From Escherichia phage vB_EcoS-26175I: a stretch of 64,000 bases of DNA. Location: the sequence record NC_133255.1. One strand, 5' to 3'. The first letter of the stretch is position 1. Every line of letters begins with the position of its first letter. Positions 5,321 to 38,819 of the stretch are shown piece by piece. Under the pieces are notes generated by a model. The model saw nothing but the letters and a program-made list of their open reading frames with translations, was not told the origin of the DNA and did no database searches. The position numbers and the translations under genes were made by a program.

Positions 5321-7378
5321 TTACCTTATATGGATATACCCACTATTTAGGTCTATCTTCATCTTATAGTATGCTTCAGGGTTCCCTGATAACGCAGCAT
5401 TTCTATCATAGATTATATTAACACCGATTTGTGATAAGAAGGCATTTCCTGCCACAATCTTATCCGCAGTAACAGTTCCATTAACAATCATATTGCCATG
5501 AAGAACCATTGCAGGGTTAATCCATCCAACTCCGTTCCATTGACGGGTAAATGCTGTTTGCGGAGCATTACTGTTAAATTGTGTTAGAACATCATACTTA
5601 ACCGGAGGTTTTCCAAAGTTATTTTGGAAGAATGCATTAGCTTGTCCGTCATCCCAACCACCTAGTCCAGGAATACCCATGGAGTACATCCCAGGACCAC
5701 GCTGTCCATCGTGTCCTATAGTACCTTCAGTACCACTCCACTGAACTACATCAGACCAGCTAGTACCTTCAAGAAGTTTGTTAGTAACTGGATCAAGTGT
5801 ACCTGTAGTCGCATAGATATTTTGTGTCATATCTATACGATTAGGTGGAGTTTTAGACCAGCCTGGGGGTGGATAATCTTGTTCTAATGGTTTAGCTGGC
5901 AGAGATGTTGCTAACTTATAAACAAATACTGTTTGCTTACCTTGTAAACCAGTTCCAATATCTACGTCACCATTTGGTGTTCCAATTACTACACCACTAG
6001 AGATACGCAGAGTAGTACCGTCATAACGTATCCATTGTGTGGCGTTACCAATATCTAATTTAGCTTTGGCGGAGGTATTATCCATACCCATCCAAATACC
6101 AGAGTTATTATCTCCCCAAGATTTACCTTGAGTGTAAATTGCTGGATTATCTTTACCAGACAAGTTAGTCATAATAAAGTTCGCAGCATTAATATCTCTA
6201 GTAATTACTTTACCATCAACGTTAACAACACGATTTATAGGATCGAAAGAAATAGGTGCTTTTCCTTCTTCATCTAGCAGACCAATGTTAATAGCACCAG
6301 TAGCTGCATCAATTAGGAATGTCTGTCTCCAGATTTCCCCATCTTTCATACTACCCTTAATAAAGGCATAGTTAACATCAATACCCGTCTCATTGACAAA
6401 ACTGTTATCTAGAGGAGTATCCTCATTCAGAATAAATGTTACAGGAGCTGACTCTGTTATATCCTGTTTATTTGGCCCCCAGGCAATTGATGCTACCTTA
6501 AAAGTATGTTCAACTTTCCATGGGAATGATATAATCGTTGCAGCTCTAGCAGCCCCCACGTTTATCTTTTGAGCTTTAGCCCAGCCAGTCTTAGCGTATT
6601 CTTCGGAGTTTATATAAGTAACCAAGAACTCACGAACATTAGCACCAGCACCGCGTTCCCAATCCCACTCAATTCTAACATCATATCGTTCTTTACCATC
6701 AGCAATTCGTGCAGCTTTAAAAACAATATCGATAGGTGCAGTAGGAGGAACAAAATTATAAGCTACAGTTAGAATACTAGGGAACTCATAGTAACCAGAA
6801 GAATCAACTGTAACACCATCAGGCATAGTTACTTGACCAGATATTCTGATCTTATAATCTCCGATAGGAACTCCACCAAATTTAATAGTAGAACCTAAAG
6901 CCCCAATGTAATACTTAGTCCAAGGACTATCTTCCGTGGCTGTACTTTTTAACTCAATAGTACAGTAACTTGCTTCACCAGTAGTTTCCACAACAACTAT
7001 TGGAGCGCCCACCCCAACATCCACTGGTTCTGACTCAGATCTTGCTGCAACAATTATTGGCTTCTCTTTTGTTTTAAAGTTAGTTTCATTAGAGAGGTTA
7101 ATACCAATTTTTGCATTTAAAAGTTCTGAGTCAATAATTGAGTCATAAAAAGCTCCCTGAATCTGATAGGTTGTTGAGGGAGTTAAGTTATTGATCATAA
7201 CAAAGAAAGTGTCGATTCCAGTGAAATCTCTTCTATCCACTTCTTCGCCAAGTTTAAGCCAGAATGATCTACCGATAACATCGTAGTCGGTATAGATAGA
7301 ATGCTGGATATACGCCATAGTATACCCAGTCATAATACTATTTAAGACCATCTTGGCTGGTGCATTATTCGAAATCAT
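5321..7378 (-). CDS. baseplate/central tail-tip protein (T5 pb4-like)
   Basis: 685-aa ORF directly downstream of the pb3-like gene; size and synteny match T5 pb4 (688 aa). Confidence 0.65.
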
Positions 7379-10228
7379 TTAAATAGATGCCCAATCCACA
7401 GATTGCTCGCCATTATCACCTTCTGCTCGTATACGGAAGCGTAACTTCCTATTAATACCTAGAGCATCCTCGTTATGAAGAGCATAGTCTGCCTTATTGT
7501 ATATCAGTAGATAATCGTAGACATACTGATCTTCAATTCGTACACTTCTTAATAAACGATCTAGGTTATCGTAGATTTCGAGAGTGTAGAAGATTCCATC
7601 AATGATATCTTCTTCTGGAATTCTATCCCAGGCCAACTTAACGTCTGGTCCTACAAACTCCGATGCATCTCCTGAAGCTGTATTAGTAACTCTGAAGTTA
7701 CTAACGACGCTTAAGTTTTTAGCAGAGTTAAGTTCTACTGATAGTGTTACTGGAGAACTTCGTCTACCATTAATATCTACAGCTCTAATCTCAAATACTG
7801 CTAAACCAGCAGGTTCTCCAATAATTTCTTGGATCATTCGTAGATTTGGATTAGTTTCTAGTTGCTGTATGATATAAGGATTAGCATGTCCAGAGTGAAC
7901 GATGGAGTAATAAACAACGTTATTAGTTAAGCTAGGAAGCCAAGATAACTCACCATTCTTACCAATAGATCCTACTTGTCCACCCGGTGTTGGTGTATAC
8001 ATAAAGTCTCTAGGAGGCAGTACATTATTACTAACATCAGGGATATCGTTACCACTATTATCAACCTGCTCGGAGTTAATGAATACATCCTCACCATACT
8101 CTTGCAGTGTAATATTAATCTTACCTTCTCTAGAGTTTTCAACTTCATCAACTAGGAAGTATTTCTTATCCCAACCATAACGACCATAAGTAAAAGCAAT
8201 GGGGTCATTAGGCTCAATGCCTATGAAGTGATATGGTAATGAGAATGTGAGAGTTCGTGAGTAACGAGACTTTTTCAGTTCTCTATCTGCAAAACTACGG
8301 GCAGTATAGTAGTTAGTGATATTTGCAAAAGAAAGTTGAAGTTTTTTATCTAACCCTTTATCCTGTTCCTTAAATATAGAGTTAAAGAATGTAATGGAGT
8401 TAGTCTTCCAGCTTAATGCGGGATCTAATATAGAGGCTTGTACTGAGTTAAACTTATTTCTACCAGTAGTATCTGATAGCTCCAAATCACCATAAGTATC
8501 TAAGAAGTCAATCTCCAGTGGGGTGTTGGAGAACTTCTCAACAGTTATTCTATATTGCCCAGATAAGTTATTAATAGCACCACCATAAGACTCTATCAAT
8601 CCCTGCACATTTTTAAATACTGACTCAGAGGTATCAAGAATAGTGTTCATTTGAACTATTTGTCTATTCTCTCCTACAGCATCAGTCCACCCAACATATC
8701 TCCAATAGGGTTGCCAAGAAACCTGATAGGATTCATCAATTATATCCAGAATAGCTGCTTCTTGAATAAGTTGCTGGAGGGGGAACTGATCAATAGTGAT
8801 ATTAGCACCGTAGCGATCAGAGGTTAGGTAGTCCAGAGTTTGCCAGATACCGTTTAAGCTAGTCTTATCAGCAGTTACTCTACCATCTGAATGGTAGATT
8901 TTAGTCTTCTTACCTTGAACTTCAGCACTAACTTCTGGAATTTCTGTTCTGTTTTCGTTAATAGTAAAGCGAACAATAGCATAAGCAGTATCTAACAGTT
9001 TATAACGAGAGTCCCAGTATTCCGGTCCATTCTCATTCATGTTCTGTAGATAGAAACCTTTCTCTTTTGCAATGTTAACTAGAACATCCGCAGCAGATTG
9101 GTCTGCTCTACCATGGTAAGTCCAGATACGGATATCGCCATTACCATCATTATACCTATATTCCTGTCCATGAACAGAAGGTTCAGAGCTTGATTGACCA
9201 GAAGCAATACGTTGCATGGTATCTCCAGCTACTTTCTTAGTACCAAAGCAAGTACGAGACTTACTATCATTAGGATCAATACAGATCATTGGTACATCAC
9301 CAAAGTAGAAATCTAGAAATCCATCAATCTCACCCTCACAGAATGCATACACTATATATACAATATTAGGGTTATGCAGCTCAGTATCTGCGAATACGGG
9401 GATTCCAGGAATTTTCTGAGTTCCATACACTACCGGGAGGAACTTAGCTGCTAAGTTAAAATCGATATCAACTTCCTTAGTCACAGTCTCATAGTATTTC
9501 TTCATGCTATAGCTTCTAGAAAGACCAAATAACTTTTTCTTAGACTGTAACTTGTAGCGTTCTTCCTGAACCTGATACTTAGCAAGAATAGAGATACTCT
9601 TATTAGCGTGGAAGAATCCATAGTCCTCTTGATATTCAGGTCGCTTAGCACCGTTAGATGGAACTAATTGGCCAGCAACAATCTCAAGTCCCCTATGGGC
9701 AGCATCATCTGTGAAACGTCCGTTTACTCTATCAAAGTCATAGAATTGATTTGAACAGTTCCATGTGATAGTAGATGTGCTAATTCCAGAAGTACCAATG
9801 TTATCCTTAATACCTCCACCAGTAATTTTACCACGAAAGTAAAGTAAAGGACCATTAGTGTCTGAATCTACAGGAAGAATATTGCCTTCTTCATCAATAA
9901 CCGCTTGATGGATTGAGATAGACCTATCTAGGAAGGATACACCATTTTGGACTAGTTTTAATACTTCATCCTCCGCAGTACCTGTGATAGTAAAAGAAAG
10001 ACTACCAATGGAAAGATCTCTATTTTGTTTATGTGTTGTTATAGACTTAACCTTACCGGAGGTATAAAGAATACCATTATATCTTACATCTCTAAAATAA
10101 TCTGTAAGATATATGTATGCAGAACTTGATCCAGTAGAACCAGGCAATTCAAGAGTAATAAGACATGCAGTTTTTATTTTATTATGAGTTCTTAAATACT
10201 CTCTTGCACTGTCAAGAATTTTCTTCAT
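7379..10228 (-). CDS. baseplate hub protein (T5 pb3-like)
   Basis: 949-aa ORF, same length as T5 pb3; follows distal tail protein. Confidence 0.7.
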   Translation of the reverse strand: MKKILDSAREYLRTHNKIKTACLITLELPGSTGSSSAYIYLTDYFRDVRYNGILYTSGKVKSITTHKQNRDLSIGSLSFTITGTAEDEVLKLVQNGVSFLDRSISIHQAVIDEEGNILPVDSDTNGPLLYFRGKITGGGIKDNIGTSGISTSTITWNCSNQFYDFDRVNGRFTDDAAHRGLEIVAGQLVPSNGAKRPEYQEDYGFFHANKSISILAKYQVQEERYKLQSKKKLFGLSRSYSMKKYYETVTKEVDIDFNLAAKFLPVVYGTQKIPGIPVFADTELHNPNIVYIVYAFCEGEIDGFLDFYFGDVPMICIDPNDSKSRTCFGTKKVAGDTMQRIASGQSSSEPSVHGQEYRYNDGNGDIRIWTYHGRADQSAADVLVNIAKEKGFYLQNMNENGPEYWDSRYKLLDTAYAIVRFTINENRTEIPEVSAEVQGKKTKIYHSDGRVTADKTSLNGIWQTLDYLTSDRYGANITIDQFPLQQLIQEAAILDIIDESYQVSWQPYWRYVGWTDAVGENRQIVQMNTILDTSESVFKNVQGLIESYGGAINNLSGQYRITVEKFSNTPLEIDFLDTYGDLELSDTTGRNKFNSVQASILDPALSWKTNSITFFNSIFKEQDKGLDKKLQLSFANITNYYTARSFADRELKKSRYSRTLTFSLPYHFIGIEPNDPIAFTYGRYGWDKKYFLVDEVENSREGKINITLQEYGEDVFINSEQVDNSGNDIPDVSNNVLPPRDFMYTPTPGGQVGSIGKNGELSWLPSLTNNVVYYSIVHSGHANPYIIQQLETNPNLRMIQEIIGEPAGLAVFEIRAVDINGRRSSPVTLSVELNSAKNLSVVSNFRVTNTASGDASEFVGPDVKLAWDRIPEEDIIDGIFYTLEIYDNLDRLLRSVRIEDQYVYDYLLIYNKADYALHNEDALGINRKLRFRIRAEGDNGEQSVDWASI

Positions 10229-27948: not shown

Positions 27949-28275
27949 TTAGTATAAATTAAAAAGATCTCGAAGTAAACAAAAATTTTTATTTCTGGGA
28001 TGAGGTACAGGTAGCAAACACAAAGCAAGATGAAGAAAAGTCCTTTCAGGAACCTGTTAACTTTGAAATAGATCCCAGGACTAAAGCAATACATGATGCA
28101 GTTAACGAAATCATTCAAGACGTCATGGAAGATACAATAGAAGACGTGATGGGAACATCCTTCTTACTAGAAGAATCCGGCTTCGAGGAAGTAATGGATC
28201 TTATCGGGACAGTCATAATGGTTCGTGCAATTGCTAGGATATTCCAAATACCAGGACTACAGGAGAAGCAAAGAG

Positions 28276-28407
28276 ATGTCAGACGACAGAAGAAAGAACA
28301 GACGCGGGGAAGTGTACGAAAGTTGGATAAATAGTTTCGGATTCGGGACTGTGTTATTCTTTATCTTTGTACTCTTTTGGTTAGCGGCTATGGCGGGGTG
28401 GTTATAA
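28276..28407 (+). CDS. small membrane protein (43 aa)
   Basis: Internal ATG of ORF 28225..28407 with GGAGA upstream; hydrophobic C-terminus FGFGTVLFFIFVLFWLAAMAGWL. Confidence 0.35.
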   Translation: MSDDRRKNRRGEVYESWINSFGFGTVLFFIFVLFWLAAMAGWL

Positions 28408-28510
28408 TGGAAGTAGTGATTATTGCATTACTAGTTGTGGTAATTATCGGGCAGTGCATCTTAGATAACCATTTAGCTCGTATAGAACGTAAGCTGCGGG
28501 GGGATAAATA

Positions 28511-28705
28511 ATGGATTGGTTAGGACTTATTACACTTGTAGTATGGCTTGTCTGGATTGTTGGATATATGACGTCACACCGTAATCGCATACAGCGACTA
28601 GAGGATAAAGTCACCCAGCTGAATATTAATATGGATAAGTTACTGGACTCCCAACGTAATGATCGGGCACGTATTCACCAACTTGAGAGGGAATTAGATG
28701 TTTAG
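28511..28705 (+). CDS. small membrane protein
   Basis: 64-aa ORF, N-terminal TM helix WLGLITLVVWLVWIVGY. Confidence 0.45.
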   Translation: MDWLGLITLVVWLVWIVGYMTSHRNRIQRLEDKVTQLNINMDKLLDSQRNDRARIHQLERELDV

Positions 28706-28943
28706 CTTTGTAGCTATCTTCATTATCGGGGTGCTTGCTGGAATCTTCGGAACACTCGGGGCGATTAACAAACATCGTGAATATGTTGCGGGAGTATCGC
28801 GGGAGCTTTCGGAAAGAGAGCGGAGGTTTGCGGAGAAACGTGCGGAGTTTGAGCGAGAGTGGTCGGATGGATCTCGGGCGTCGCGGAGGAGATTTCGTAT
28901 GTCAGAATCAGGAGACAAGCCGGTAGACCGGTGTTCCTCCTAA
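28698..28943 (+). CDS. small membrane protein
   Basis: 81-aa ORF, N-terminal TM helix, Arg/Glu-rich tail; followed by terminator. Confidence 0.45.
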   Translation: MFSFVAIFIIGVLAGIFGTLGAINKHREYVAGVSRELSERERRFAEKRAEFEREWSDGSRASRRRFRMSESGDKPVDRCSS

Positions 28944-29057
28944 GTTAGCGCTAATTACCAATTCTCGAAATCTCATAAGATTACACATGCGGGTGGGCCC
29001 AGAGGTTCCCTAGATGAGAATGAGTCTCATTACCGCCCCGATACTTAGCAAGCTAAT

Positions 29058-33870: not shown

Positions 33871-34089
33871 TCAAGCGTTTTTTAAACTTTTTTCGATTTG
33901 ATGGGAGTTATATAAATCAATCATTATATTACGCCACACCATTTCCAGACCTTGCTGCTTGCCTTTCTTGTATTGCTTGAATCGGTATTTTACCGATCGT
34001 TGCGCTACTGTCAACAAATTTTTTGTTCTGCTATCTAATGCACTAGCAGGTTTCGCACTAATCACTAAAGCGTTTTTTGATTTGATCAT
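33871..34089 (-). CDS. hypothetical basic protein
   Basis: 72-aa ORF, Lys/Arg-rich; first minus-strand gene next to the divergent control region. Confidence 0.4.
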   Translation of the reverse strand: MIKSKNALVISAKPASALDSRTKNLLTVAQRSVKYRFKQYKKGKQQGLEMVWRNIMIDLYNSHQIEKSLKNA

Positions 34090-34465: not shown

Positions 34466-34492
34466 TTAGAATGCGTTACAGAGCGTTTTAGA
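34466..34492 (+). repeat. 27-bp direct repeat TTAGAATGCGTTACAGAGCGTTTTAGA (left copy)
   Basis: Identical 27-mer at 37806-37832; partial inverted copy near 34962 and partial direct copy near 38912. Confidence 0.9.
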
Positions 34493-34546: not shown

Positions 34547-34821
34547 TGATTTTTCAAAAAAGTATTTTCTGCTATTATTTTTCATTGACAAATAAGTTTA
34601 GACGTGCATTGATTGGTTAGCAGACTAACAATCGCTAGGATGATAATCACGCTGGTGGATTGTAACAGCTGAAACAGTTAGCAGACTATTAATACTCTAG
34701 AAACCTGTTAGCCAACTAACTATTTCATATTATATAATATACATATAAATTAATAAGAAATAATAACTATAAGAAACTATCAGCTAAGTGAGAACCACTA
34801 TCATTTAGGTTATTCACAAAG

Positions 34822-34830
34822 TTATCCACA
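34822..34830 (+). promoter_or_regulatory. DnaA box TTATCCACA
   Basis: Perfect match to the E. coli DnaA box consensus. Confidence 0.6.
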
Positions 34831-34870
34831 GCACAAAATAACTTGACGCAATAGGCGACGTTTTGGCGAC

Positions 34871-34879
34871 TTATCCACA
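34871..34879 (+). promoter_or_regulatory. DnaA box TTATCCACA
   Basis: Perfect consensus match, 40 bp from the previous box. Confidence 0.6.
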
Positions 34880-34899
34880 GACTTATATACAGGTTATCC

Positions 34900-34919
34900 T
34901 ACTGTATAAATATACAGGG
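34900..34919. promoter_or_regulatory. LexA (SOS) box-like palindrome TACTGTATAAATATACAGGG
   Basis: CTGT-N8-ACAG palindrome, core CTGTATAAATATACAG identical to right-hand copy at 37865-37880. Confidence 0.5.
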
Positions 34920-35166
34920 TAAATAGGTAGCAGTAACAACCGCAATCAAATTTAAGCGGCCTAGAACGCATTCTAAGCGATTTTCTCACTGCTACCCTTA
35001 TTATAATAAAGCCTTGTGTACGCTTACAGAGAGCTAGAAATAGAAAACGCGCGGTTATCATAAAAACAGGCAGTAGGCAAGGAATAAAAAACCTTTTCTT
35101 TTTTCTTGCCCCTAGCGAACAATTATCTATATCATTCACTCACCGATTAACGAGGGAGACAAAGAA

Positions 35167-36168
35167 ATGTCTACTGTAAGAATTGCAGTACCAGCAAACG
35201 CCACTATTATTAAGGGTAGTTTGCGCAACCTGCTAGACGGATCAAGTCCAGCAAGCCTACAACATACGGCGGCAATGGTTGAAAAGATTCACGATGATAT
35301 TTTAGATAATAATGATACTCATTATTGTTTAAGTGATTTCACACAACTACTAGACCCTACCCGCGTTCTAGTGCTTTACAACCGTGACTATCACATCATG
35401 CGAAATCAGCGGGGAAGCGATATTGATTTTATCATTGTAGGTCACGACGAAAAAAGCTATATTGCCCGTGGTTACAATGTACAAGAAAAGGAAATGGTTT
35501 TCGCTACTCGCGTAAATGGTATTAATTCCAGCGATGTAGAAGATTTACTATCTAGTATTTGGGGCGAATTGACAAGCGCCATTAAACGTGCTGATAGTGA
35601 CGCAATCGAAACAACTGGCGTATTGTGTTTTGAACGCGCTAGCGGTAACATGTTGATCCCTAACGATTATTTAGAGTATGGGAATGAATCAAACGTTGCA
35701 AACGCTGGATTTACACTTTTACCGCTTGACAATGTAACAAAACAGGCTGTAAGATCTAACACTCAAACTTCAAGCGCAAATGCGCAAACTACTGAAAATA
35801 AAGGAAATATTATGTCTAAAGTATCTTCTATCGTTGCTGCTAACAAATCTGCTGTTGTAAACGCTGCTAAACTGGAAGCGGGTAAAATTGCACTGACTCA
35901 AATCACAAAAGTAGCGGCGAAAAAAGCACCGTTTATGATTAAAGGGTATATTGATACGCCGATTGGTCGTGTAGTGATCGCTAACCTGCTGAGTGTAGCG
36001 GTTGACCAGTACGCCCCGACTAATGCGAAAGCGAAAGCGGTAGCAGGCGCGGCAATGGAAGCAGCAATGCTGGAAATGGTGCAGAGTTTCAATATTGCTG
36101 AAATGATCGATGAAATGGTAAAAGGCATTGACATTTCTACTTTTACCACTAACACCGAAAGCGAGTAA
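35167..36168 (+). CDS. hypothetical two-domain protein (first gene of plus-strand operon)
   Basis: 333-aa ORF, GGGAG RBS; N-terminal ~200 aa domain, Thr/Ser/Gln linker, Ala/Lys-rich C-terminal domain; no motif I recognise. Confidence 0.6.
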   Translation: MSTVRIAVPANATIIKGSLRNLLDGSSPASLQHTAAMVEKIHDDILDNNDTHYCLSDFTQLLDPTRVLVLYNRDYHIMRNQRGSDIDFIIVGHDEKSYIARGYNVQEKEMVFATRVNGINSSDVEDLLSSIWGELTSAIKRADSDAIETTGVLCFERASGNMLIPNDYLEYGNESNVANAGFTLLPLDNVTKQAVRSNTQTSSANAQTTENKGNIMSKVSSIVAANKSAVVNAAKLEAGKIALTQITKVAAKKAPFMIKGYIDTPIGRVVIANLLSVAVDQYAPTNAKAKAVAGAAMEAAMLEMVQSFNIAEMIDEMVKGIDISTFTTNTESE

Positions 36169-36194
36169 TAAATAGTCTAATGTAAAGTTTTGTA

Positions 36195-36223
36195 AAGGTC
36201 GCCCTAATCGGCGGCCTTTTTTG
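36195..36223 (+). terminator. putative rho-independent terminator/attenuator after first operon gene
   Basis: GC-rich hairpin followed by TTTTTT, then a TATAAT hexamer. Confidence 0.4.
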
Positions 36224-36287
36224 TTATAATGCCTTTACACCGAAACGGTGGACTGAAAATTTTCCCTAATTTCTAGGAGGCGTTAAA

Positions 36288-36437
36288 ATGGTTATTTTTC
36301 GATCTATTCTGGCTAGTATCTTGGGCGCTATTTTATCCTTGTTTGTAATAGCTTTCGGCGTTCACGTGGTTATTATTGGAGCAGGTATCGCGGGGTTTTC
36401 TTACTTGTTAGGCTGTATGACTGGTAAAGGGGAATAA
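36288..36437 (+). CDS. small membrane protein (49 aa)
   Basis: ATG with AGGAGG RBS; hydrophobic throughout (ILASILGAILSLFVIAFGVHVVIIGAGIAGF); below ORF-track size cutoff. Confidence 0.5.
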   Translation: MVIFRSILASILGAILSLFVIAFGVHVVIIGAGIAGFSYLLGCMTGKGE

Positions 36438-36439
36438 AA

Positions 36440-36652
36440 ATGTTAAAGAATGTTTCCCTTGCCCGTTCCAAAGGTTTTAAGCTGGTGGATGTTAACACGT
36501 TCGAGCGTCCAGATTGTAAAATCGAATATGTAGCACGCAACAAAAACGCTTTCCGTGTTACAGAAAAGAAATTTGACAAGCGCGGCAATTTGGTAGCCGA
36601 AACGGTCAAACACTTTGCCACCTTTTACGCTGCATTTCGTGGGGTATTATAA
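36440..36652 (+). CDS. hypothetical protein
   Basis: 70-aa ORF, basic. Confidence 0.45.
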   Translation: MLKNVSLARSKGFKLVDVNTFERPDCKIEYVARNKNAFRVTEKKFDKRGNLVAETVKHFATFYAAFRGVL

Positions 36653-36759
36653 TGGAAAGGGCAATTGTTAAAATGTTAACTTTTGTTTGTGGCGTGTCTA
36701 GTGCTACTCTGTTGATCACGCTAGTGATTATGATTATCCGTGACGCGAGGATCTTTTAA
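36652..36759 (+). CDS. small membrane protein (35 aa)
   Basis: Start overlaps upstream stop; single TM segment. Confidence 0.35.
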   Translation: MERAIVKMLTFVCGVSSATLLITLVIMIIRDARIF

Positions 36760-37103
36760 TGGTAATTTATGAGGGCAATCGTTTTGTTACTAATTGCCGT
36801 CCGGCATTATTAGCAAACTATTTAAATCAGCTTTCACCAGTTTATAAAGGCGTAGTTAATATCTATGAGGGCAAAGCACATTATAAGATTAATGCCATTG
36901 TTGCCCGTGAACTAGCGTTTCAATTTTTAACTTTCGGGTCTTGTGACGTTCAGGTTATGGGGGAAGCGTTAATAGCAGAAAATGAAAATGAATTTATCGA
37001 CATTTTCCGCAAAGTATATACAGAGCGCCTGATTATGAAAGGCGCGTATATTCAATCAACCGCTGAAAGTATCGAAACAGCGTTTCGAAAGGTGGCGCAA
37101 TGA
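36759..37103 (+). CDS. hypothetical protein
   Basis: 114-aa ORF; ATG overlaps previous stop. Confidence 0.5.
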   Translation: MVIYEGNRFVTNCRPALLANYLNQLSPVYKGVVNIYEGKAHYKINAIVARELAFQFLTFGSCDVQVMGEALIAENENEFIDIFRKVYTERLIMKGAYIQSTAESIETAFRKVAQ

Positions 37104-37285
37104 CTAGAAATGAAGCTGTTAAAGCTATGTTAGAAGGTAAAAAAGTAACTCATCGTTATTTTTCCATGCATGAATATTTATTCATGAAATATGAAGTGAT
37201 CACCACGGAGGATGGTTATAAATTTAATCATGAATTTTATAGCCGTGAAATGTTTAATGATGGCTGGCAGCTTTATTATGAATAG
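37100..37285 (+). CDS. hypothetical protein
   Basis: 61-aa ORF; ATGA overlap with upstream gene. Confidence 0.45.
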   Translation: MTRNEAVKAMLEGKKVTHRYFSMHEYLFMKYEVITTEDGYKFNHEFYSREMFNDGWQLYYE

Positions 37286-37415
37286 CTGGTGGCGTAAAAC
37301 GCAAAGTCACAAATCTAATAATACCGCTGGGAATGTTTCCCAGCGTTTACGATTTGGTAATGGCTTTACAATGATATTGATAATCATTCTCATTCTAGGA
37401 GCGATGGCGTTATGA
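37277..37415 (+). CDS. small membrane protein (46 aa)
   Basis: Internal start of ORF 37212..37415 overlapping upstream stop; C-terminal TM segment FTMILIIILILGAMAL. Confidence 0.35.
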
Positions 37416-37507
37416 GACTATATATTTTCGTGGGTAATATTAAGCCTGCTAATGATCCCAACGGTGGCGACAATATCCGCCGCTATTTTCAACAATACAT
37501 CTATTAA
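37412..37507 (+). CDS. small hypothetical protein (31 aa)
   Basis: ATGA start/stop overlap with upstream ORF; AGGAG 10 nt upstream. Confidence 0.3.
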   Translation: MRLYIFVGNIKPANDPNGGDNIRRYFQQYIY

Positions 37508-37522
37508 TAACGGGGCGTTACT

Positions 37523-37717
37523 ATGAGTGATAAAATTGTTATTCGTAAAACTAGTGTTACCGTGGATACATTCTATGTAGAAGATACAAAAGAAAACCGC
37601 GCAATTTGTGAGAATCAAGAGTATGACAAACTTATATATGATGAGTATGGTTACTACACTAATCTAGTAGATTCCTACGGTGAAAGCGTAGAGTTCTCCC
37701 ATCAAATACCGGACTAA
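37523..37717 (+). CDS. hypothetical acidic protein (last gene of plus-strand operon)
   Basis: 64-aa ORF followed by hairpin terminator. Confidence 0.45.
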   Translation: MSDKIVIRKTSVTVDTFYVEDTKENRAICENQEYDKLIYDEYGYYTNLVDSYGESVEFSHQIPD

Positions 37718-37723
37718 TAATAA

Positions 37724-37752
37724 CGGGGCGCAACTATCGGCCCCGCCTTTTC
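37724..37752 (+). terminator. rho-independent terminator ending plus-strand operon
   Basis: Hairpin CGGGGC-N10-GCCCCG followed by CCTTTTCT. Confidence 0.5.
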
Positions 37753-37805: not shown

Positions 37806-37832
37806 TTAGAATGCGTTACAGAGCGTTTTAGA
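37806..37832 (+). repeat. 27-bp direct repeat TTAGAATGCGTTACAGAGCGTTTTAGA (right copy)
   Basis: Identical to 34466-34492. Confidence 0.9.
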
Positions 37833-37862: not shown

Positions 37863-37882
37863 TACTGTATAAATATACAGTA
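37863..37882. promoter_or_regulatory. LexA (SOS) box-like palindrome TACTGTATAAATATACAGTA
   Basis: 19/20 match to TACTGTATATATATACAGTA. Confidence 0.5.
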
Positions 37883-37890
37883 GAATAACC

Positions 37891-37911
37891 TGTTGATAAG
37901 TCTGTTGATAA
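37891..37911 (-). promoter_or_regulatory. two tandem DnaA-box-like 9-mers TGTTGATAA
   Basis: Each is one mismatch from TGTGGATAA (reverse complement of TTATCCACA); copies at 37891-37899 and 37903-37911. Confidence 0.4.
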
Positions 37912-37963
37912 CGCCTCAAAATCGCTAGGATTTTGTCAAGTCAAATCGTGCTGTTAATAAACC

Positions 37964-37972
37964 TGTGGATAA
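37964..37972 (-). promoter_or_regulatory. DnaA box (TGTGGATAA, reverse orientation)
   Basis: Perfect reverse-complement match to TTATCCACA. Confidence 0.6.
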
Positions 37973-38015
37973 CTTAAATAACAGTGTTTCTCACTTCCCT
38001 TTCTAAATGCAAATC

Positions 38016-38150
38016 ATTCTCATTATGCGACTCATTCGCATTCAACTCTGTAAATGATAACCATTCTCATTCCGCTTTCTAAACGCGAATCATTCTCATT
38101 CGCATTCAACTTCTCAAATGCGAATCAATCTCATTATCATTCGCATTTCG
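38016..38150. repeat. degenerate tandem repeats built from CATTCTCATT and CGCATTCAAC units
   Basis: At least five copies of (A)ATCATTCTCATT.CGC and three of TCGCATTCAAC(T)TCT within 135 bp. Confidence 0.7.
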
Positions 38151-38179
38151 GCAGGCAGGGCATTTTCATTTTTGCCCTG

Positions 38180-38790
38180 CGCTTTTGTGCAAATCCGACA
38201 TTTGCCCCCACGGATTACGTGCCAGCGTGCATGTGCGAATCCGACAATTTTTGGTAGTGTGCAAATCCGATGGGAAATATTTTTTATATGTGCGAATCCG
38301 ACAATGAATTTTCCTAAAAACTCCAGCAATCAACAACTGCGATGCAATCCAGCTGGATTTACTAGAATATGTGCAGATCCGACAAGTGTTAAGGTGTGCG
38401 AATCCGACAAGATTTTTGTGACTTCGATGAGAGGGTGTGTGATTGTGTGAGTTTGGGGAGAAGTGCGAATCCGATGAGATTTTGGGAGGAACTACGGAAG
38501 GAGCAGCGGTGTTGGTGCTTCAGCACCGGTTTGCTGCGTTTTTGGGGATAATGTGGGATGTTTTGGCTAGAATTGAGATTAGGGGAGATAAAGCGAAATT
38601 TTATTAGCAAAATGGGGCAGAATAGCTTGACAAGTGAAAATTCCTGTGGCTCTAAAAACTCAGGCAAATATGGGCCTTCGGCCCGAAATAATGCTGCTAT
38701 TTTCAGTGTTCCTAAAAACTTTGGAGACTCCTATCAATGTGCAAATCCGACCATAAATTTCTAGAAACATAATGTGCAAATCCGATAGCA
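38180..38790. repeat. iteron-like array: at least 9 copies of GTGCRAATCCGAYR with irregular spacing
   Basis: Copies near 38190, 38233, 38270, 38291, 38372, 38397, 38463, 38740, 38773, each followed by AT-rich tails. Confidence 0.8.
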
Positions 38791-38819
38791 ATTTCCAGAA
38801 ATGTGTTTTGGAAAAATGT

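Follow-up and report, generated by a model that had tools for sequence, protein, structure and literature searches.

The plus-strand gene block at 35167-37717 of Escherichia phage vB_EcoS-26175I: very probably the rightward arm of a T5-type pre-early region

The window analysed here is a 64,000-nucleotide stretch of DNA from Escherichia phage vB_EcoS-26175I (NC_133255.1), and our subject is the block of nine open reading frames (ORFs) on its plus strand between 35167 and 37717, all of which are present, in a window whose other long ORFs are almost all on the minus strand. It is very probable that this block is the rightward arm of the T5-type pre-early region, that is, of the terminal-repeat DNA of first-step transfer (FST), in the Epseptimavirus vB_EcoS-26175. 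The host-takeover module that a sequence-only reading had proposed here is real, and it is already known, both as a kind of module and in this very sequence. The existence of the block and its opposite orientation to the rest of the region, both claimed in that reading, stand: eight of the nine ORFs are annotated in an identical GenBank record and seven match PHROG families with E-values of 1e-17 to 1e-155, although 'hypothetical protein' is the sole annotation of most products.

Three deposited genomes of Escherichia phage vB_EcoS-26175 (II, IV and V) show 100% identity to the window between 34800 and 38200. These are classified in Demerecviridae, Markadamsvirinae, Epseptimavirus and are relatives of T5, as the sequence-only reading had supposed. 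Altogether 524 phage records match this interval, with many Salmonella and Escherichia T5-like phages at 89-95% identity. In the annotated identical record, the neighbouring minus-strand genes are dmp, two small genes, A1, A2 and again two small genes; then follow eight plus-strand 'hypothetical' genes, a 1.6-kb non-coding stretch and the minus-strand early genes. The left terminal repeat of T5 (NC_005859) is syntenic, with dmp-A1-A2-hdi, an inverted-repeat arm, genes 011-017, a second inverted-repeat arm, the iss repeats and the T5.018 homologue in succession. T5.011-T5.017 run rightward there between two repeat regions and are followed by the annotated injection stop signal, and the T5 counterpart of our segment is 6495-9157 of NC_005859. 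In the same way the block in the window lies between IRC-spacer-IRD and IRD'-spacer-IRC' repeats and to the left of the iss repeats. This synteny supports the pre-early, first-injected position that had been suggested for it.

Five proteins of the block have T5 orthologues by blastp, collinear and encoded on the same strand, namely T5.011 (57% identity), T5.013 (62%), T5.014 (93%), T5.015 (89%) and T5.017 (55%), and a sixth match connects the 31-aa ORF with an unannotated T5 ORF. The two arms are further alike in their position between the IRC/IRD repeats, in their strand relative to dmp/A1/A2, in the promoter and in the terminator after gene 011. They differ in that homologues of T5.012 and T5.016 are absent from the arm of this phage, that a 35-aa transmembrane (TM) peptide, a 61-aa protein of predicted Tad2-like fold and a 45-aa tail-anchored peptide are added, that the 011 homologue has no more than 39% identity in its N-domain, and that the 013 homologue lacks 10 loop residues. 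Nothing in the T5 genome sequence corresponds to the 35-, 61- and 45-aa genes, and those of 45 and 61 aa are found in some other T5-like (Tequintavirus-type) phages. The accessory genes between the 011 and 013 homologues also differ among close relatives, a variation of this arm already remarked by Davison. Divergence is mostly synonymous in the C-domain of the 333-aa gene and in the 70-, 114-, 49- and 45-aa genes. None of the nine proteins has a match in NCBIfam, the minus-strand ORFs inside the segment lack family support, and Rfam has no match in the segment.

The comparison with T5 corrects the statement that the genes are unknown and refutes the one that no described system matches them, by the very condition that the sequence-only reading had set for its refutation: at least three have been studied, orthologues stand at the same place in T5, one of them with a known biochemical function, and the flanking cis-elements are published. 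Thirteen pre-early genes of T5 were cloned, of which 008, 011 and 015 proved toxic, and 015 was found to bind Ung and to nick Ung-made abasic sites, leading to arrest of replication and division (Mahata et al., PNAS 2021). Toxicity was subsequently documented for dmp, A1, hdi, hegG, 011, 013 and 015; gene 011, which "resists functional predictions", disturbs the organisation of the nucleoid, 013 expressed alone causes a lysis-like loss of (membrane) integrity, and T5 lacking hegG-017 together with accessory genes of the left arm remains viable, although its plaques are smaller (Annor et al., bioRxiv 2026). In the Tequintavirus Bas33, blocked after first-step transfer, pre-early transcripts and ten pre-early proteins were detected, and the pre-early genes of BF23 are described as forming two inversely oriented transcription units.

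The 114-aa protein (36759-37103), which had been counted among the unknown genes, is the orthologue of T5.015 (YP_006843.1, 114 aa), the Ung-dependent abasic-site nickase of T5, with 89.5% identity over 114/114 residues and no gap. T5.015 has lysines at positions 30, 39, 43, 85, 94 and 111, and all six are kept in the protein of the window. The inactive mutant of T5 015, which loses toxicity, is K85A/K94A/K111A (Mahata et al., PNAS 2021). Judged from its sequence and from the T5 experiments, the 114-aa protein would share both Ung binding and abasic-site nicking with T5.015. A sequence search returned no solved structure or PDB relative for it. Its neighbour in the arm is a basic 70-aa protein (36440-36652), the T5.014 orthologue in PHROG 4227, which is likewise without a PDB relative by sequence search. 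RefSeq records NC_005859 and NC_010583 as well as PHROG 4227 put the name of the Ung-dependent abasic-site endonuclease on this 70-aa T5.014 family, and the 114-aa family (PHROG 4379) is labelled 'unknown'. The name is on the wrong gene because a K85/K94/K111 mutant fits only the 114-aa family, T5.014 with its 70 residues being too short. In T5 the 70-aa gene lies at 8086-8298 and the 114-aa gene at 8300-8644, and the misplaced label looks like an off-by-one transfer of the name. Reuse of the name of PHROG 4227 would spread the mislabel to further annotations.

The first gene of the block (35167-36168) encodes the 333-aa protein that had been regarded as impossible to assign. Evidently, it is the T5.011 orthologue and a full-length member of DUF7566 (Pfam PF24450), with 446 bits against a cut-off of 27 and residues 1-333 on profile positions 1-336. 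The protein consists of a variable alpha/beta N-domain (1-187), a disordered linker and a nearly invariant helical C-domain (about 215-331). AlphaFold2 with 29 homologues gave a confident alpha/beta N-domain at residues 60-170 (predicted local distance difference test, pLDDT, about 90), a disordered linker at 188-234 and a helical C-domain of modest confidence. Compared with T5.011, the N-domain is 39% identical and the C-terminal 128 residues are 92% identical, and 31% of the identical codons in this C-terminal part carry synonymous changes between T5 and this phage. The combination of 92% identity with 31% synonymous changes indicates strong purifying selection on the C-domain protein. The alignment of homologues displays the same contrast between a fast-evolving N-domain and a near-invariant C-domain; within it, the subgroup P0099-P0103 has a second C-domain allele with a 5-residue insertion, and the C-domain alone is common to a second PHROG family, 16673. 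No fold or sequence relative of the 333-aa protein was found in the PDB with model and profile searches, and its BFVD matches, which come from other Demerecviridae and from a few phages of Vibrio and Acinetobacter, are all uncharacterised. The name 'DNA N-6-adenine methyltransferase', which UniRef gives to many of its relatives (e.g. P0011, P0085), was rejected, DUF7566 being the sole Pfam match and the PDB giving none; this name was apparently copied from one record, that of phage STG2.

A sigma-70 promoter-like site, TTGCCC-18-TATCAT, lies on the plus strand at 35106-35135 and aligns with the annotated promoter of T5.011. Between this site and the 333-aa gene there are a conserved leader and a GAGGGAG Shine-Dalgarno sequence; the -10 element and the leader are invariant in four phages, and the -10 element, leader and Shine-Dalgarno sequence are invariant in comparison with T5. 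The 333-aa gene is followed by a 119-nt intergenic stretch with an intrinsic terminator on the plus strand at 36194-36219, a hairpin with a 10-bp stem and a U-tract (-16.2 kcal/mol, z -3.3), and this stretch is nearly base-for-base that of the annotated T5 terminator after T5.011. Directly behind the hairpin, at 36221-36229, stands the motif TGTTATAAT, which is the same in the T5 stretch and could be an extended -10 promoter. Because 119 nt with a strong terminator separate them, the 333-aa gene is set apart from the coupled chain, and a single nine-gene operon was rejected on account of the internal terminator. Translational coupling, which had been claimed for the block from the 333-aa gene onwards, was confirmed for the seven genes from the 49-aa through the 31-aa ORF, whose junctions are, in chain order, a 2-nt gap, TAATG, TAATG, ATGA, an 8-nt overlap and ATGA. 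The terminator ascribed to the unit itself is present on the plus strand at 37725-37744 as a GC-rich hairpin followed by CCUUUUCU, at a place where T5 has an annotated putative terminator. Nevertheless, it is a weak terminator-like end (z -1.9), and the stronger terminator is the one after the 333-aa gene.

The small genes of the chain are of two sorts, those shared with T5 and the accessory ones. The 49-aa membrane protein (36288-36437) is the T5.013 orthologue with the shortened loop mentioned above and is 100% identical to Eps7 AGC_0011; among relatives its gene differs solely by synonymous changes. The interval 36169-36287 is without the T5.012 homologue and without the 102/164-aa genes of Eps7 and other relatives, and the 013 homologue is joined precisely to the leader which in T5 stands ahead of T5.012. 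At least three single-pass membrane peptides had been announced for the block, and hydropathy does give three (49, 35 and 45 aa); however, the 49-aa protein probably has two hydrophobic, TM segments like T5.013 rather than one. The 35-aa single-TM peptide (36652-36759), annotated in GenBank, is the product of an accessory gene that is present in UTK0010 and TrudiRoth and absent from T5, Eps7 and Ace, and no family match was found for it.

Eight of the nine genes claimed are annotated, and the remaining one, a 67-aa ORF (37212-37415), does not survive as written since its first 22 codons are not conserved and its last 45 are. From this pattern of conservation, the real gene most likely is 37278-37415, encoding a 45-aa tail-anchored membrane peptide with a C-terminal TM segment (MNSWWRK...ILGAMAL). 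The 45-aa gene is 80-100% conserved in 226 phage records, is unannotated in this phage and is annotated in TrudiRoth as bas30_0181. Its differences from relatives fall on third codon positions in 7 of 9 cases in two comparisons, and in 5 of 8 and 1 of 4 cases in the other two. It begins before the 61-aa gene has ended, with an overlap of 8 nt. A hairpin with a 9-bp stem (37325-37345, z -3.9) was noticed within the 45-aa gene. The chain ends with the gene of a 31-aa protein (37412-37507; PHROG 22819) that is 68% identical to the unannotated T5 ORF 8641-8736, which in T5 is ATGA-coupled to the stop of T5.015. This T5 ORF overlaps the annotated start of T5.016 in a different frame, and the true start of T5.016 may be at its Met22 (8744). 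Behind the chain lies the gene of the acidic 64-aa protein (37523-37717), the T5.017 orthologue in PHROG 6973, which is 98% identical to Eps7 AGC_0015. It is bracketed by a 24-nt direct repeat, CTA(T/A)TAATAACGGGGCG..ACTAT, at 37501-37524 and 37714-37737, and the second copy makes up the 5' half of the end hairpin. The repeat pair may be the trace of a cassette insertion or of a duplication.

The set of cis-elements that had been described on both sides of the block is fully present, with a perfect 27-nt repeat, an 18-nt palindrome and a 132-nt inverted repeat with DnaA boxes. The 27-nt direct repeat TTAGAATGCGTTACAGAGCGTTTTAGA occurs on the plus strand at 34466-34492 and, as a perfect second copy, at 37806-37832. 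Among the loci checked the exact pair is found only in this phage, and T5 has no copy within 3 mismatches. The left arm of the inverted repeat (IRC-spacer-IRD) extends from 34786 to 34917 with paired DnaA boxes at 34810, 34822 and 34871, and the right arm (IRD'-spacer-IRC') from 37865 to 37996, where a DnaA box at 37964 is accompanied by variant boxes. Both arms align with those of T5, Eps7, TrudiRoth and Ace and have a spacer flanked by two pairs of boxes, DnaA or variant, which is the published pattern, the IRC-spacer-IRD repeats having been described for 25 T5-like phages (Davison). Four of the eight consensus DnaA boxes of the window are in these arms; over the whole window the boxes are not enriched (8 against 7.4 expected), only their clustering in the arms being notable. 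At 37975-38791 lies an injection-stop-type repeat field with AATCATTCTCATT repeats and seven TGTGCGAATCCGACA repeats (repeat families D1-D4), the counterpart of T5 Repeat Region 3 / iss. Compared with the T5 injection-stop repeat regions 2 and 3 (Heusterspreute 1987; Wang 2005; Davison 2015, 2020), the inverted repeat of 131-132 nt, the pairing of the DnaA boxes 3 bp apart and the subsequent DRC/DRD-type repeat field are alike, whereas the flanking pair of exact 27-nt direct repeats is peculiar to this phage.

The palindromes stand at the inner end of both inverted-repeat arms, the left copy, TACTGTATAAATATACAG(GG), at 34900-34919 and the right copy, TACTGTATAAATATACAGTA, at 37863-37882. A 16-nt core, CTGTATAAATATACAG, varies neither between the two sites nor among the six loci compared (T5 and five of Epseptimavirus, this phage included). 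The five Epseptimavirus loci share the full 18-mer TACTGTATAAATATACAG at left and right alike; in T5 the right site has it too, and the left one starts with CC instead of TA. The consensus of the LexA (SOS) box of E. coli is TACTG(TA)5CAGTA. The right copy matches it at 19 of 20 positions and the left copy at 18 of 20, and the two palindromes are among only three CTGT-N8-ACAG sites in the 64 kb. By its letters, then, the flanking palindrome qualifies as a near-consensus LexA-like box. LexA is not mentioned in the Davison 2020 preprint, and a literature search gave no link of LexA to the T5 FST repeats.

From these observations we propose the following scheme. Once roughly the first 8% of the genome has entered, host sigma-70 RNA polymerase would transcribe the arm from the T5.011-type promoter, and the strong terminator after the 333-aa gene would lower transcription into the coupled chain or separate the chain as a second unit, possibly with an extended -10 promoter just behind the terminator. 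The products would be accessory host-takeover factors: a two-domain protein of T5.011 type that would be toxic and disorganise the nucleoid, a two-TM membrane toxin of T5.013 type, and a nickase of T5.015 type that would bind host Ung, cut the Ung-made abasic sites in uracil-containing host DNA and stop replication and division. To these the arm would add the T5.014 and T5.017 types and, from small genes that vary between lineages, two membrane peptides, the 31-aa protein and the mini-protein of Tad2-like fold. The scheme builds on the identity, synteny, orthology, coupling, regulatory motifs and purifying selection described above. Toxicity, nickase mechanism and dispensability are taken from the T5 experiments, and 55-93% identity together with the conserved signals suggests that the functions and the pre-early timing extend to this phage.

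Several points weigh against the assignment or narrow it. The functional experiments all come from T5/Tequintavirus, this phage being an Epseptimavirus, and toxicity on overexpression is not equal to function in infection, the arm being dispensable in T5. On four of the nine genes (35, 61, 45 and 31 aa), which have no annotated T5 counterpart, the T5 data are silent. With an N-domain so divergent in sequence, the target of the 333-aa protein may differ from that of T5.011. Moreover, the placement in the terminal repeat rests on synteny for this phage, as the deposited assemblies are permuted.

The 61-aa protein (37100-37285) deserves separate treatment, since it alone hints at something other than host takeover. 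An exhaustive phmmer search found 262 relatives, mostly of 60-70 aa, and by tblastn the family occurs in 169 phage records, among them those of T4-like, rV5-like and Aeromonas phages. The top Pfam match is Tad2-like (PF11195), below the gathering threshold of 25 both for the 61-aa protein (14.4 bits) and for the 44%-identical Eps7 allele (17.8 bits); the same profile matches 14 of 85 relatives at E<0.01, with a best E-value of 3.8e-4. The AlphaFold2 model is very confident (pLDDT 97.8), and Foldseek against 350,542 PDB chains placed SPO1 Tad2 in all of the top six matches with a probability of up to 0.95 and a TMq of 0.72, but at E = 0.38. hhalign of the family against real Tad2 sequence fragments from the PDB gave 89.6% probability over the whole length. 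A profile search with the family among PDB sequences found no Tad2. Tad2 sponges are homotetramers that sequester the signal and inhibit Thoeris. The likeness of the model to SPO1 Tad2 (PDB 8SME, 8SMF) consists in an N-terminal helix followed by a small antiparallel sheet, in the terminal W and the T-x-D of strand beta4, which align, and in both being small phage proteins, of early infection as predicted for the 61-aa one. The differences are in length (61 aa rather than about 89), in the missing helix alpha2 of the dimer interface and in the absence of the GWNG loop and of the W-x-x-SQTD motif, which contact gcADPR. Of the gcADPR contacts, the W25/N26 loop falls into a gap of the hhalign alignment, H71 is replaced by F, W73 by H, S76 by Y, T78 by R and D79 by E, and T65 and D67 are the sole positions kept; the family has conserved residues of its own, H18, F21, E25, E37 and W56. 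The model thus points to a mini-protein of Tad2-like fold in which the ligand-binding signature is not kept, and not to a Tad2.

Could the block then be an anti-defence island, whose small variable genes, above all that of the 61-aa protein, counteract bacterial immunity, for instance by binding up a signalling nucleotide, instead of attacking housekeeping functions of the host? The confident model of the 61-aa protein with its Tad2 matches in the PDB and by hhalign, and the Tad2-like Pfam matches of two divergent alleles and of a part of the relatives, would fit, as would the scatter of the family over unrelated phage groups, which is often seen for accessory counter-defence genes, and the variable content of an arm that is dispensable in the laboratory strain. 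However, the sub-threshold scores, the poor Foldseek E-value, the failure of the profile to find Tad2 in the PDB and the loss of ligand contacts and dimerisation region count against it, and nothing else encoded in the arm looks like a known anti-defence protein, so we regard it as unlikely. Superinfection exclusion or membrane remodelling, in which the 49-, 35- and 45-aa peptides at the inner membrane would block competing phage DNA or manage the paused injection, could appeal to three hydrophobic peptides in one coupled chain, to the damage that T5.013 alone does to the membrane, and to the membrane association of A1 and the proposed membrane binding of FST DNA (Davison). Yet PHROG, Pfam and NCBIfam gave no homology to known exclusion proteins, T5 without the whole arm still completes second-step transfer and forms plaques, and the 35-aa gene is absent from many relatives, which leaves this explanation very improbable. 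The sequence-only reading had offered host takeover, anti-defence and exclusion side by side; the T5 orthologues speak for host takeover, and the others have no hint in their favour beyond the fold of the 61-aa protein, which lacks the Tad2 binding signature.

It has also to be considered that the inverted-repeat arms with their DnaA boxes and LexA-like palindromes are part of the injection-stop signal and that the genes between them are dispensable cargo. The arms and palindromes are much better conserved than the gene content between them, as Davison also points out, noting that the distance between the arms varies widely, and the T5 mutant without the cargo is viable. On the other hand, the 70-aa and 114-aa proteins and the C-domain of the 333-aa protein are under strong purifying selection, which shows that the proteins themselves are maintained, and the plaques of the T5 deletion mutant are smaller. 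A purely cis-acting role of the block is improbable, and such a spacer is compatible with the host-takeover arm and no true alternative to it. That the block is a previously undescribed system or a run of chance ORFs is hardly credible: most products are indeed annotated as hypothetical, but orthologues were studied in T5, PHROG and Pfam families exist, the codon-position bias supports coding, the minus-strand ORFs of the segment are without family support, and the Rfam search came back empty. Taken together, anti-defence, exclusion and cis-acting readings are possible for single parts and are not supported for the module as a whole, for which we retain the rightward pre-early arm.

Two observations were made in the neighbouring left arm and beyond. 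The minus-strand ORF at 33871-34089 encodes a 72-aa protein visibly similar to T5.008 (hdi), the FtsZ-targeting division inhibitor; going by this likeness, the left arm would also carry a characterised host-takeover gene. Just left of dmp, the 1-kb bin 28001-29000 has a GC skew of +0.235 in a negative background, roughly at the place expected for the physical left end of a T5-type genome, that is, the collapsed junction of the terminal repeat.

For the T5 arm 011-017, the architecture, the flanking repeats, the toxicity profile and the dispensability are all published, and the homologue of the 114-aa protein has a defined mechanism. The practical value of the comparison lies in the finding that the nickase label in RefSeq and PHROGs is on the wrong gene and that annotations have missed two conserved micro-genes, the 45-aa gene here and the 31-aa gene in T5. 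Two leads emerge from it, the Tad2-like fold of the accessory 61-aa protein and the LexA-like boxes as a cis-element. It is a rather unlikely idea, though one worth stating, that the 61-aa protein founds a minimal divergent branch of Tad2/DUF2829 that sequesters an immune signal other than gcADPR or, separately, that the LexA-like boxes recruit host LexA to the paused FST DNA. If the former were true, a signal sponge would reach the cell already with the earliest-injected DNA of T5-like phages.

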